Virus record (IMG/VR): IMGVR_UViG_2778261502_000007 | Coordinates: 1 to 45,005 of that record | Strand: one strand, 5' to 3' | From: a virus | Lineage: Duplodnaviria; Heunggongvirae; Uroviricota; Caudoviricetes | DNA: 45,005 nt | Shown here: positions 4,770 through 20,691 of the stretch, piece after piece | Numbering within the stretch: the stretch's first letter is position 1 | Layout: each line of letters begins with the position of its first letter | Position numbers and translations under genes: made by a program | Notes under the pieces: generated by a model | What the model was told of the DNA's origin: nothing | Database searches by the model: none | The model's input: only the letters and a program-made list of their open reading frames with translations

Positions 4770-5189
4770 TTAAGAGGCTTTTTGTTTTTTCTTTCGTGCT
4801 AACTCTTCGTAAATTGCATTGTACTTCTGTTTTTTCTCCTCAAGAGTTTTTAAAAGTTCATCTGTCTCACTGTCAGGGAGCTCGTCCAGAAGGTCAATGA
4901 TGATTTTTTGTCTTGGATTTAACTCCTGATAGAAACGTACCTGTCCACTTTCTTCTGTATCCTCTCCCAAAAGATAGGTTGGTGTTGTTCCAATTAGTGT
5001 TGCTAATTCCCTTAATTTCTCTCGGCGAGGAATTGTTTCGCCATTAAACCATTTGCTAACCGCTTTTGGTGTTAATTTCATTCGACGGGCAATTTCTGCC
5101 TGCCTTCCATGTTGTTCATAACCAGCGTTTTCACAGGCTAGCGCAAGCCTACTGGCGAACTCTTTACGCGCTTTATCTTCATGAACCAT
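4770..5189 (-). CDS. XRE-family HTH repressor (CI/DicA/RacR-like), 139 aa
   Basis: HTH segment QAEIARRMKLTPKAVSKWFNGETIP; C-terminal charged helical tail; divergent from Cro-like gene. Confidence 0.75.
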   Translation of the reverse strand: MVHEDKARKEFASRLALACENAGYEQHGRQAEIARRMKLTPKAVSKWFNGETIPRREKLRELATLIGTTPTYLLGEDTEESGQVRFYQELNPRQKIIIDLLDELPDSETDELLKTLEEKKQKYNAIYEELARKKKQKAS

Positions 5190-5268: not shown

Positions 5269-5523
5269 ATGAACCAGAAAACACTTGAAGATGTAATCAA
5301 AACTGTTCGCGTTTCTGTTGTGGCCGACGTTTGTGGTGTCAGCCAAAGAGCAATCTACAAATGGATGGATAACGGAAAATTGCCTCGCACAGAATATACC
5401 GGCGAAACAAATTACGCTGAAAAAATCGCTCATGCATCAAACGGATTATTTTCTGCCGATGCAATTTTAACTATTGGCAGAAATAAAACTACTACGAAAA
5501 AGCGGATGGGAGTTGATTCATGA
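5269..5523 (+). CDS. Cro/YdaS-like HTH protein (84 aa)
   Basis: Internal ATG of track ORF 5197..5523; HTH VADVCGVSQRAIYKWMDNGKLP. Confidence 0.65.
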   Translation: MNQKTLEDVIKTVRVSVVADVCGVSQRAIYKWMDNGKLPRTEYTGETNYAEKIAHASNGLFSADAILTIGRNKTTTKKRMGVDS

Positions 5524-5942
5524 AAATCAAGCATGAGCACATCGAATCAGTGTTGTTAGCCCTGGCAGCCGAAAAAGGGCAGGCATGGGTAGCCAATGCA
5601 ATTACTGAAGAATATCTGCGCCAGGGGGGCGGCGAATTGCCCCTGGTTCCAGGCAAGGACTGGAACAATCAGCAGAATATCTATCACCGTTGGTTGAAAG
5701 GTGAAACGAAAACGCAAAGAGAAAAAATTCAGAAGCTGATCCCAGCAATTCTGGCAATCCTTCCGCGCGAGCTGCGTCACCGACTCTGCATCTTCGATAC
5801 CCTGGAACGCCGTGCATTACTGGCGGCGCAGGAAGCGTTGAGTACGGCGATTGATGCGCATGATGATGCAGTCCAGGCCGTTTACCGGAAAGCGCATTTC
5901 AGCGGCGGCGAGTCGTCCGGCGATTCTGTCGTAGTGCATTGA
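5520..5942 (+). CDS. ydaT: YdaT-like protein (140 aa; CII-position regulator)
   Basis: ATGA overlap with upstream gene; length and position match Rac ydaT as recalled. Confidence 0.55.
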   Translation: MKIKHEHIESVLLALAAEKGQAWVANAITEEYLRQGGGELPLVPGKDWNNQQNIYHRWLKGETKTQREKIQKLIPAILAILPRELRHRLCIFDTLERRALLAAQEALSTAIDAHDDAVQAVYRKAHFSGGESSGDSVVVH

Positions 5943-5986
5943 TTGAAATTAATCGTGCCGGACTGTTTTGTTCGGTATCAGTTAAA

Positions 5987-6430
5987 TGTAACGCTCACAG
6001 CGTTACAGGGTGAAAACAATATGGCTTCAAACTGGATAAAGCTCGAGGTTATTACGCCGGATAAGCCGGAAATATTCAGGCTTGCTGAGATTCTGAATAT
6101 TGATCCAGATGCCGCATTAGGGAAAGTCATTCGCTTCTGGGCATGGGCGGATCAACAAATGATAGACGGTAACGCAGAGTGTAACGCACGCGGCGTTACA
6201 AAAAGCGCAATTGATCGCATCACTTTTATGGCTGGTTTTGCTGATGCGTTAATTCAGGTTGGATGGCTGGTCGAAACTAATGGTGTGTTGTCGCTTCCTA
6301 ACTTTGAGCGCCATAACGGGAAAAGCTCTAAAAAACGGGCGGTTACAAACGAGAGAGTTACAAAAATACGCGAACTGAAACGAAAAGGTAACGCTGCCAG
6401 CGTTACACAAACGGATCAAAAAGCGTTACC
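5987..6430. repeat. Iteron-like GTAACGC / GCGTTAC repeat cluster (candidate origin)
   Basis: Perfect palindrome TGTAACGCTCACAGCGTTACA at 5987-6007; related inverted pairs near 6181-6199 and 6388-6407; half-sites near 6169, 6342, 6357, 6423. Confidence 0.45.
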
Positions 6431-6809
6431 AGAGGAAGAGGAAGAGGAAGATATAAATACTGATCTCCCTCTAAATCTCCCTCACCAAAAACGAGCGACT
6501 AAAAAATTCGACCCGTTGTCAGTTGCTCTGCCTGAGTGGTTGCCGGAAACACTCTGGCATGAGTGGGTTCAATTCAGGCAGGCATTGCGAAAACCGATTC
6601 GAACGGAGCAGGGCGCTAACGGGGCGATACGGGAGCTGGAAAAATTCCGCCAGCAGGGTTTTACCCCTGAGCAGGTGATTAGACACAGCATTGCCCATGA
6701 ATACCAGGGCTTGTTCGCGCCGAAAGGCGTTCGGCCTGAGACGTTGCTTCGACAGGTTAACACCGTCTCGTTTCCGGACAGTGCGATCCCACCAGGCTTC
6801 AGGGGGTAA
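6021..6809 (+). CDS. ydaU: Replication initiator-like protein (YdaU/O-like)
   Basis: Track ORF 5943..6809 begins with TTG; ATG 6021 (MASNWIKLEV...) has GGGTGA upstream; immediately upstream of DnaC-like gene; start uncertain. Confidence 0.5.
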   Translation: MASNWIKLEVITPDKPEIFRLAEILNIDPDAALGKVIRFWAWADQQMIDGNAECNARGVTKSAIDRITFMAGFADALIQVGWLVETNGVLSLPNFERHNGKSSKKRAVTNERVTKIRELKRKGNAASVTQTDQKALPEEEEEEDINTDLPLNLPHQKRATKKFDPLSVALPEWLPETLWHEWVQFRQALRKPIRTEQGANGAIRELEKFRQQGFTPEQVIRHSIAHEYQGLFAPKGVRPETLLRQVNTVSFPDSAIPPGFRG

Positions 6810-6815
6810 CGAAGC

Positions 6816-7562
6816 ATGAAAAATATTGCGACAGGCGGCGTTCTGGAACGTATCCGCAGACTGGCCCCGCCACATGTAACCGCGCCATTCAGGACGGTGG
6901 CGGAGTGGCGCGAGTGGCAACTTGCAGAAGGCCAGAAACGTTGTGAGGAGATCAACCGTCAGAATCGTCAGTTGCGGGTGGAAAAAATCCTGAATCGCTC
7001 CGGCATCCAGCCGTTGCACCGCAAATGCTCGTTTGCGAATTACCAGGTGCAGAACGACGGCCAGCGATACGCGTTGAGTCAGGCGAAATCTATCGCTGAC
7101 GAACTGGTTACCGGATGCATAAATTTCGCGTTCAGCGGAATGCCTGGTACCGGAAAAAACCATCTGGCGGCGGCTATCGGGAATCGCCTGCTGAAAGATG
7201 GCCAGACAGTGATTGTGGTTACCGTGGCGGATGTCATGAGTGCTCTACACGCCAGCTATGACGATGGGCAATCAGGCGAAAAATTTTTGCGGGAACTGTG
7301 CGAAGTGGATCTGCTGGTTCTTGATGAAATTGGCATTCAGCGCGAGACAAAAAACGAGCAGGTGGTGCTGCACCAGATTGTTGATCGCCGGACAGCGTCG
7401 ATGCGCAGCGTGGGGATGCTGACAAACCTGAACTATGAGGCCATGAAAACATTGCTTGGCGAGCGGATTATGGATCGCATGACCATGAACGGCGGGCGCT
7501 GGGTGAATTTTAAATGGGAGAGCTGGCGCCCGAATGTTGGTCAGCCAGGAGTTGAAAAGTAA
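6816..7562 (+). CDS. ydaV: DnaC-like helicase loader (248 aa)
   Basis: Walker [14 protein letters not shown], Walker [10 protein letters not shown]; strong SD upstream. Confidence 0.8.
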
Positions 7563-19608: not shown

Positions 19609-20691
19609 ATGAGCAGACCGGACTGGGGGGCGTTGCAGCAGGAGTATATTGCTGAATACACCCGCTCCGGTATATCTCCGGTGGCATGGTGTGAAGCAAG
19701 GGGACTGAATTACGCAACAGCCCGTCGTTACATCAAAAAACCTCCGAAAAATGCGCAGGCAGAAGTGCGCAAAACTGCGCAAAAAGGTGCGCAAAAGAAA
19801 ACTGCGCAAAAGCGAACCGGCAAAACGGGGAAGGAAAAATCCAGAGTGGTTGTTTCTCCCGTTGCAGGAAATGATCAGGAAATTTTATTCAATCCCGATG
19901 AATTCGGCATCTCAGAGCAGCAGACGAAATTTGCGATGCTGGTTGCACAGGGGAGAAAACTCGTTGAGGCATATCGCCTGGCAGGATACGAGTCAGAGGG
20001 GAATGCGGCCTACGTAACTGCCAGCCAGCTCCTAAGAAATCCTAAGGTTTATCGGGCTATCTCATGGTTCCGCAATCAGTACCAGAAACGCTATACCGCA
20101 GACCTGGATTTACTGGTGAGTCAGTTGATGGCCATTGTCCAGGCCGACCCCAATCAGTTAGCACAATTTCGCCGTGTTAACTGCCGTTATTGCTGGGGCG
20201 AGAATCATCTCTACCAGTGGCGCGATATAGCAGAATTTGATAAGGCAGCGGCGCAGGCTTCCAGAGATGGCAAACCCGAACCGGAATATGGAGGCCTTGG
20301 CTTTGTTGATAACGCCATACCCAATCCGGACTGCCCGAAGTGCTGCGGTGAGGGAACGGGGCAGCTTTATATGGCTGATACCACTCTGCTTGATGGGGAT
20401 GCACGGCAATTATATGCAGGGGCAAAGCTCGGGAAATTTGGTGTTGAGATCCTGCTGGAGGATAAGTCTGCCGCCCGGCGCGAACTTATCAAGCTGATAA
20501 TGGCGACGAAAGGAAGTTCTGCTGGTGGTGCAACTGACAGTCGCAATGATCTGGAGCTTGAAGGACTGAGGCTTCGCAATGAAAAGCTGCGCACTGAGAT
20601 TGAAAACCTCAAAAAAGGCGTGGGTGGTGAGAATAACGAAATAATTATCCACAACTCTCTGCCGATGCCGGGAGTGGATAATGTCGATTGA
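19609..20691 (+). CDS. Terminase small subunit-like
   Basis: N-terminal HTH GISPVAWCEARGLNYATARRYIKK, basic linker, coiled-coil; overlaps terminase large subunit start. Confidence 0.55.
   Translation: MSRPDWGALQQEYIAEYTRSGISPVAWCEARGLNYATARRYIKKPPKNAQAEVRKTAQKGAQKKTAQKRTGKTGKEKSRVVVSPVAGNDQEILFNPDEFGISEQQTKFAMLVAQGRKLVEAYRLAGYESEGNAAYVTASQLLRNPKVYRAISWFRNQYQKRYTADLDLLVSQLMAIVQADPNQLAQFRRVNCRYCWGENHLYQWRDIAEFDKAAAQASRDGKPEPEYGGLGFVDNAIPNPDCPKCCGEGTGQLYMADTTLLDGDARQLYAGAKLGKFGVEILLEDKSAARRELIKLIMATKGSSAGGATDSRNDLELEGLRLRNEKLRTEIENLKKGVGGENNEIIIHNSLPMPGVDNVD

Follow-up and report, generated by a model that had tools for sequence, protein, structure and literature searches.

The initiator gene and its protein family

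The window, by which we mean the whole 45,005-nucleotide stretch of DNA that was analysed, contains a region that gene content and profile matches identify as the early-right operon of a Rac-like lambdoid E. coli prophage. A cI/RacR-like repressor gene on the minus strand (4770–5189) is followed by a Cro/YdaS-like gene (5269–5523), a YdaT/cII-like gene (5520–5942), a plus-strand initiator gene of 262 codons (6021–6809), the plus-strand gene for a DnaC-like helicase loader, YdaV (6816–7562; Pfam IstB_IS21, 6e-20; phrog_50, 8e-85), and a DUF1627 gene that comes after ydaV in the operon. By megablast, the 1-kb region recurs at 92–97% identity in the complete genomes of about 680 E. coli, and also in induced phages. 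The homologous gene of the induced phage vB_EcoS-666R9 is annotated as ‘DNA replication protein O’, and in RefSeq a gene of the window type is called ‘hypothetical protein’ and one of the K-12 type ‘YdaU family’.

The 262-residue protein matches the profile phrog_2509, ‘replication initiation protein’, along its entire length (residues 1–262 against positions 1–277 of 277; E = 1.2e-86). The gene had been predicted from its sequence to encode an O-like initiator, and a role in replication initiation is backed by this match, by the DnaC-like loader encoded directly downstream and by the cI/Cro/cII-like context. The term ‘O-like’ does not extend to homology: BLASTP of the window initiator against lambda O detected none (E = 1.5). 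The ‘O-like’ profile phrog_678 was matched in part only, by residues 76–236. No Pfam family was matched by the 262-residue protein, including Phage_rep_O, DUF1376, Rep_3 and RepA. NCBIfam returned a marginal match of 19 residues to the DnaT domain (PF17948/NF002770; E = 0.0033), which at 17 bits against a cutoff of 201 does not place the protein in that family.

An AlphaFold model divides the protein into an N-terminal winged-helix-like domain (residues ~10–122), a disordered linker (residues ~123–170) and a C-terminal helical domain. The N-terminal domain (hereafter N-domain) is modelled as helices with a β-hairpin, and its sole structural neighbours are winged-helix DNA binders, all of them weak matches (Foldseek E > 0.5). 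The family that it defines has no Pfam or NCBIfam model. An exhaustive search with the N-domain alone nevertheless retrieved 6,437 protein clusters at 50% identity with E ≤ 1e-3, and 3,980 with E ≤ 1e-10. Phage homologs carry labels as varied as ‘primosomal protein I’, ‘replication protein O’, ‘pyocin large subunit’, ‘endopeptidase’ and ‘hypothetical’.

The C-terminal domain varies within the family, being YdaU-type in the window, DnaT-like in phage ZX5 and in locus L147, and different again elsewhere. The gene downstream always encodes a helicase or a helicase loader, which is DnaC-like in the window and in phage PAN70, DnaB in Ralstonia and lambda-P-like in Pseudomonas. In the window the YdaV loader is the likely partner of the initiator C-terminal domain. 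Mild support for the origin reading developed below comes from Pusillimonas, in which a circular, phage-like ‘plasmid’ of 41 kb has no recognisable replication-initiation genes other than those for this initiator and an ATP-binding loader.

Half-sites, palindromes and the layout shared among homologous loci

Counting both strands, the window contains 15 exact copies of the heptamer GTAACGC/GCGTTAC, compared with 4.4 ± 2.3 in shuffled sequences, none of which (0/100) reached 15. Eight of the 15 fall within 5988–6429 (starts at 5988, 6000, 6169, 6181, 6193, 6388, 6400 and 6423), where the rest of the window would predict 0.07 in 444 bp (Poisson P ~ 1e-14). The original prediction of at least three inverted GTAACGC/GCGTTAC pairs with extra half-sites, lying within and just upstream of the gene, is thus confirmed by eight exact copies. 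The pairs form three palindromes of 21 bp, TGTAACGC-N5-GCGTTACA, that are 193 and 207 bp apart. Palindrome 1, TGTAACGC-TCACA-GCGTTACA (5987–6007), occupies the intergenic spacer between ydaT and the initiator gene, 14 bp before the ATG at 6021. Palindrome 2 (6180–6200) lies inside the N-domain coding region and palindrome 3 (6387–6407) in the linker coding region.

Extra exact half-sites are found at 6169–6175 and 6423–6429. The first of these extends palindrome 2 into a site of the form GTAACGC-N5-GTAACGC-N5-GCGTTAC (forward, forward, reverse; 6169–6199), which encodes DGNAECNARGVT and is referred to here as the N-domain site. The second closes the linker array (6377–6429), which comprises a degenerate forward copy, GAAACGA (6377–6383), followed by GTAACGC (6388–6394), GCGTTAC (6400–6406) and GCGTTAC (6423–6429), and which falls in the disordered linker at residues ~119–137. 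The last two half-sites of this array are 23 bp rather than 12 bp apart, equivalent to one extra helical turn. Weak, degenerate reverse copies, of uncertain relevance, are present at 6339–6361, namely GCGGTTACA (6339–6347) and GAGTTACA (GAGTTAC at 6355–6361).

The repeats leave their mark on the protein, as had been proposed for the VT dipeptides: forward sites are translated as G-N-A or C-N-A, and reverse sites as G-V-T, S-V-T or A-L-P. Relative to ZX5 and most distant homologs, a 12-bp insertion at 6176–6187 (four codons, ‘ECNA’) adds one half-site and one spacer to the N-domain site, and this extra unit is common to relatives from Serratia, Pantoea and Pectobacterium. Growth of the arrays proceeds by such 12-bp steps of four codons. 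The description of the sites as ‘iteron-like’ holds only in a loose sense, as they are neither tandem iterons of ~19 bp nor, more broadly, the tandem direct repeats of ~17–22 bp of classical iterons; the units are 7-bp half-sites with a 12-bp period and mixed orientation, set in convergent phased arrays.

The last half-site is followed directly by a polypurine tract of 21 nt on the plus strand, AGAGGAAGAGGAAGAGGAAGA (6431–6451), which encodes EEEEEED. It leads into a 10-nt A+T-rich stretch, TATAAATACT, a GATC site and then a direct repeat, ATCTCCCTC-TAA-ATCTCCCTC, these elements together spanning 6452–6483. The GC content of 0.375 over 6420–6479 is the lowest of the region, and the purine skew is strongest there; the A+T-rich stretch is a short one, and the tract is rich in GA, not AT-rich in the classical sense. 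The candidate origin had been placed at 5987–6430. The repeats do lie inside these limits, but the 3′ limit falls short, and the unit probably reaches on through the polypurine tract at 6431–6451 and the A+T-rich stretch.

No DnaA box was found near the repeats within 5900–6600. An exact DnaA-box consensus, TTATCCACA, is present at 20645, far from the replication module, with a one-mismatch box on the opposite strand at 20673, 28 bp away. Palindrome 3, read on the minus strand (6388–6406) and followed by CTTTTCGTTT, scores as intrinsic-terminator-like and is the sole such match; the score is probably incidental to the purine-rich top strand.

The layout is not confined to E. coli prophages. 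Scanning one genome per species gave 71 loci from Enterobacterales, Pseudomonadales, Burkholderiales, Planctomycetota, Verrucomicrobiota (including Akkermansia), Ignavibacteriae and Acidobacteriota, and about 60 homologous loci in at least five phyla have in common an N-domain palindrome, a linker half-site array and a polypurine tract. The same layout is seen in the phage genomes of Salmonella epsilon15, Xanthomonas CP2, Pseudomonas PAN70, Vibrio 1.211 and Ralstonia Raharianne. In the Escherichia phage ZX5 and the Klebsiella phage ST11-OXA245phi3.2 (~71% DNA identity), GTAACGC-N5-GCGTTAC occupies the same place in the N-domain, and an array of four half-sites (forward, forward, reverse, reverse; 12-bp period) ends at the same GAGGAAGAGG tract. 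In epsilon15 (L155) the N-terminal cluster of GTCCGC half-sites is found at +54 to +100 rather than at ~+150, and the usual position of the N-domain site (L155 1625–1650) is taken by a different direct repeat, two copies of TTGACGG 12 bp apart.

When the loci were aligned by anchoring on the longest purine run in the linker, forward half-sites were followed by reverse half-sites, the last of them abutting C(C/T)-AGAGAAGAGAAGAGAAGA-TA. The array adjoins a conserved polypurine tract (AGAGAAGAGAAG...) and ends directly at it in most of the 55 loci listed. Across 5-kb loci, exact GTAACGC is nearly confined to gene offsets of ~+148/+160 and ~+335 to +426. The density of locus-specific half-site 6-mers in the linker segment is 30 times that in the 5-kb flanks. 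Spacings between half-sites peak at 11–13, 22–24 and 33–35 bp, with about 12 bp between linker copies, which keeps the sites in helical phase. Because spacings vary between 11 and 13 bp, a strict search for 12-12-12 arrays found only six, and these were used solely for the spacer-complementarity test described below.

Upstream half-sites are a less constant feature. Some loci have them at −30 to −60, and relatives from Shigella/E. coli (L084/L085) and from Serratia, Pantoea and Winslowiella (L086, L087, L089 and L090) have a pair at about −30 to −56. The upstream palindrome is absent from ZX5 and ST11-OXA245phi3.2 and missing in many homologs.

Downstream of the polypurine tract, 13 of 68 loci have two C-tracts with a 12-bp period, translated mostly as PPxxPP. 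This pair corresponds to ATCTCCCTC-TAA-ATCTCCCTC in the window (6463–6483) and to two copies of ATCCCCCCC in K-12 ydaU (L001 2412–2432), and is also present in L003, L157, L159, L086, L114 and L128; in several loci a G-tract stands next to it, giving CCCCCC..GGGGG. The pair may serve as a further DNA element, or it may be a proline motif belonging to one C-terminal module; with its presence in only these 13 loci it was left out of the core origin model.

Selection on the DNA and rival readings of the repeats

We looked at codon usage at the N-domain site in 34 distinct loci. GGT was used in 33/34 (background 51/245), AAC in 33/34 (background 84/144) and GTT in 34/34 (background 94/251), and this fixation holds across loci of 39–68% GC, those at 60–68% included. 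Among homologs, one and the same linker DNA word is translated in all three frames, as GNA/SVT/ALP in the window and as VTQKVTPTALQKELP in ZX5, and the polypurine tract starts in two different reading frames (26 versus 24 loci), yielding EEEEEE, EKRRE or REEKR. The sites fall where the AlphaFold model leaves the protein unconstrained, in a low-pLDDT loop and the disordered linker: pLDDT is about 59–71 over residues 41–60, and the N-domain site is part of a surface loop at residues 49–60.

Loci with variant half-sites have every copy switched together, and both arms are changed symmetrically. The classes include GTCACGC/GCGTGAC, GTTGCGC/GCGCAAC, CTAACGC/GCGTTAG and GTCCGG/CCGGAC and, in phages, GTCCGC/GCGGAC (epsilon15) and GTAGACG/CGTCTAC (Raharianne). 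In the GTCACGC class an N>H replacement is always accompanied by a synonymous GTT>GTG change that restores dyad symmetry. The polypurine tract is unchanged across all of the half-site specificity classes. These comparisons show that the half-sites are under selection at the DNA level, co-vary as a set and travel with the N-domain.

Close relatives (L004–L085) were uninformative in this respect. In close E. coli relatives, conservation of the motifs does not significantly exceed that of the remaining N-terminal half (5/56 versus about 73/480 polymorphic columns), and an apparent significance of the motifs came from the mosaic C-terminal half and not from 5940–6420. In 53 distinct close relatives the sequence is nearly invariant to ~6420 and almost fully polymorphic after ~6450, so that a mosaic junction can be placed at 6420–6450. 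Exchange at the polypurine tract therefore involves two separate modules, the N-domain together with its sites and the C-terminal domain. Across the family the N-domain is the only constant partner of the half-sites. ZX5 and epsilon15, phages of the same genus with related hosts, have different half-sites and divergent N-domains (69% and 33% identity to that of the window, respectively), which points to a reader encoded by the phage rather than a host factor.

The selection on the DNA, the co-travel with the N-domain and a modular pattern like that of lambdoid phages led us to adopt the reading that the repeats are binding sites for the prophage's own initiator, in an origin located within and just upstream of its gene. 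We put the probability of this reading at roughly 0.7.

It is unlikely, in our assessment, that the repeats serve as operators only, with the initiator or another regulator autoregulating the replication operon and the true origin elsewhere, for example further downstream or in ydaV. Dyad-symmetric sites are typical of operators, and in iteron plasmids the Rep proteins use inverted repeats to repress their own expression. The position of palindrome 1, upstream of the ATG by 14 bp and beside the ribosome-binding region, would suit such a function, but no sigma-70-like promoter was found near any of the three palindromes, and the best-conserved cluster is the linker array fused to the polypurine tract deep in the ORF, not the upstream site that many homologs do without. 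The known regulator YdaT also fails to fit. The footprinted YdaT-box of Rac and CP-933P YdaT is TTGATT-N6-AATCAA (PMC11879457), and its match in the window, TTGATTCATGAAAATCAA, spans the ATG of the ydaT-like gene at 5513–5530; this cII-like protein was rejected as the binder of the half-sites since its box differs from them and sits separately. In favour of an origin elsewhere, a published ‘oriJ’ amplicon is located in ydaV (PMC3945230). The primers lie in K-12 Rac ydaV, corresponding to 7073–7229 of the window (PMC3945230, supplement), and this placement, which is not a mapping result, does not support an origin in the initiator gene. No fine map of oriJ was found in the literature searched.

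A second alternative, to which we give very little weight, is that the palindromes act as hairpins in RNA or single-stranded DNA, with a role for example in mRNA stability, translation or primosome assembly, rather than as sites for a protein on duplex DNA. Each palindrome does fold as a hairpin of 7–9 bp (z about −2.7 to −3.3), the arm changes in variant classes are compensatory, and some family members have a DnaT-like domain, which is linked to primosome biology. Pairing, however, needs no fixed sequence, yet each locus keeps to one heptamer, conserved across phyla, and unpaired direct-repeat half-sites at helical-turn spacing are common. Moreover, the spacers between outer and inner half-sites are not complementary (4/30 positions), and an Rfam search gave no relevant family.

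That the repeats merely follow from a repeated or conserved peptide motif (GNA...VT), or arose by chance, and have no function as DNA is scarcely credible: although the protein alignment shows almost no variation in the G-N-A and V-T residues, this explanation is effectively refuted by the codon and reading-frame data, with synonymous positions fixed at the N-domain site, the same words recurring in other frames and in the non-coding upstream spacer, the peptide itself confined to a low-confidence loop or disordered linker and N>H always paired with its symmetry-restoring synonymous change, while chance is opposed by the clustering probability of ~1e-14.

A candidate origin and its relation to known systems

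Returning to the repeats as initiator-binding sites in an origin, a mechanism can be proposed in which initiator binding, unwinding of the tract and origin activity are all inferred from the sequence. The winged-helix-like N-domain would bind the 7-bp half-sites GTAACGC, with the initiator sitting as a dimer on the palindromes and side by side on the phased arrays, about one helical turn apart. The array at 6377–6429, together with the polypurine tract and A+T-rich stretch at 6431–6461, would constitute the origin core. Bound initiator may distort and open the adjacent tract (6431–6461), in which the polypurine part (6431–6451) would be an unwinding or single-strand-binding element, after which the C-terminal domain would draw in YdaV, the DnaC-like loader, together with host DnaB. 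The distal sites at 6169–6199 and 5987–6007, about 200 bp apart, are proposed to be auxiliary, contributing to a looped or wrapped initiator complex or to autoregulation. Palindrome 1 in particular may be an auxiliary origin site, an autoregulatory site or both at once.

A broader view, which we offer tentatively and regard as doubtful, is that these loci represent an undescribed module, spread over multiple phyla, in which the origin is hard-wired into the initiator ORF. Such a module would join 7-bp half-sites, arrayed convergently, to a polypurine tract, (GAGAA)n/(GAGGAA)n, that is near-universal. By analogy with DnaA-trios, the GA tract would act in strand opening or single-strand binding, and symmetric half-site switches affecting all copies at once would also rewrite initiator residues. 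The literature searched gave no account of an origin of this type or of the N-domain family, nor of binding or origin activity for any member, and the family is not covered in the paper on Eru replication types.

The finding of wider interest is an unusually clean comparative signal, in which one DNA layout, superimposed on coding sequence, has been kept from E. coli prophages to Planctomycetota and Akkermansia. If confirmed, the origin reading would provide a predicted origin for thousands of phages and prophages, among them Rac-like prophages, epsilon15-like phages and phages of Xanthomonas, Ralstonia and Pseudomonas, for which the initiator is at present ‘hypothetical’ or wrongly labelled ‘primosomal protein I’. 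The half-site classes, of which there are at least six, would supply natural variants for the study of initiator-origin co-evolution and replicon incompatibility. The loci would likewise become a test case of dual coding, in which DNA sites dictate residues (GNA, VT, ALP, EKRRE), and would offer a conserved GA-repeat element with a directly testable role in origin opening.

The Rac prophage of K-12 has the same gene order as the window, with racR/ydaS/ydaT-like genes, then the initiator, ydaV and a DUF1627 gene. The C-terminal 124 residues of YdaU are 78% identical to those of the window initiator, and the alignment is confined to them; the N-domain of YdaU is DUF1376 and unrelated to that of the window. 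Repeats are present at the same linker position in ydaU, followed by an A+T-rich stretch and the C-tract pair. Their sequence, in contrast, is (A/G)ATGTTCAAACA, in three copies (two direct and one inverted; L001 2286–2360, with degenerate copies in addition), and not GTAACGC. A different N-domain and different repeats joined to the same C-terminal domain argue for modularity, with the joint at the polypurine tract. The ydaU repeats and the adjoining A+T-rich stretch are on this comparison a candidate for the core of oriJ.

Since lambda it has been known that an origin can be embedded in an initiator gene, and the echo of lambda ori inside O that had been noted for the window holds up, in that a linker array abutting a polypurine, lower-GC tract parallels ori-lambda, where a purine-rich A+T tract comes after four dyad-symmetric iterons midway through O. 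Both origins (that of the window being predicted) lie in the initiator ORF between a DNA-binding N-domain and a partner-binding C-domain, and in both the dyad-symmetric sites precede a purine-rich, lower-GC tract on the same strand. As in the lambda O/P module, the gene for the helicase-loading partner is directly downstream and, as in lambdoid O genes, the origin region is a mosaic joint between modules. The window differs from ori-lambda in having 7-bp half-sites in convergent phased arrays instead of four tandem iterons of ~19 bp, two further palindromes ~200 and ~400 bp upstream, a GA-repeat rather than an A-rich tract, and a DnaC-like partner rather than P.

Iteron plasmids are comparable in that the sites for their winged-helix initiators (Rep of pPS10, F, RK2 and P1) are repeated beside an unwinding element, and inverted repeats serve in autoregulation. 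Plasmid iterons are direct repeats of 17–22 bp, located outside or upstream of rep, whereas the half-sites of the window are 7 bp long, mostly convergent and inside the ORF, and its initiator has no Rep_3 or RepA homology. SPP1 oriL in gene 38 and the P22 origin in gene 18 also combine a replisome-organizer gene with its own binding repeats and an A+T-rich region, but their protein families and repeats differ from those of the window. The logic of an embedded origin is therefore classical; what appears to be new, judged by the literature searched, is its combination with a protein that is neither O nor DUF1376, and with the half-site arrangement, the GA-repeat tract and the distal palindromes.
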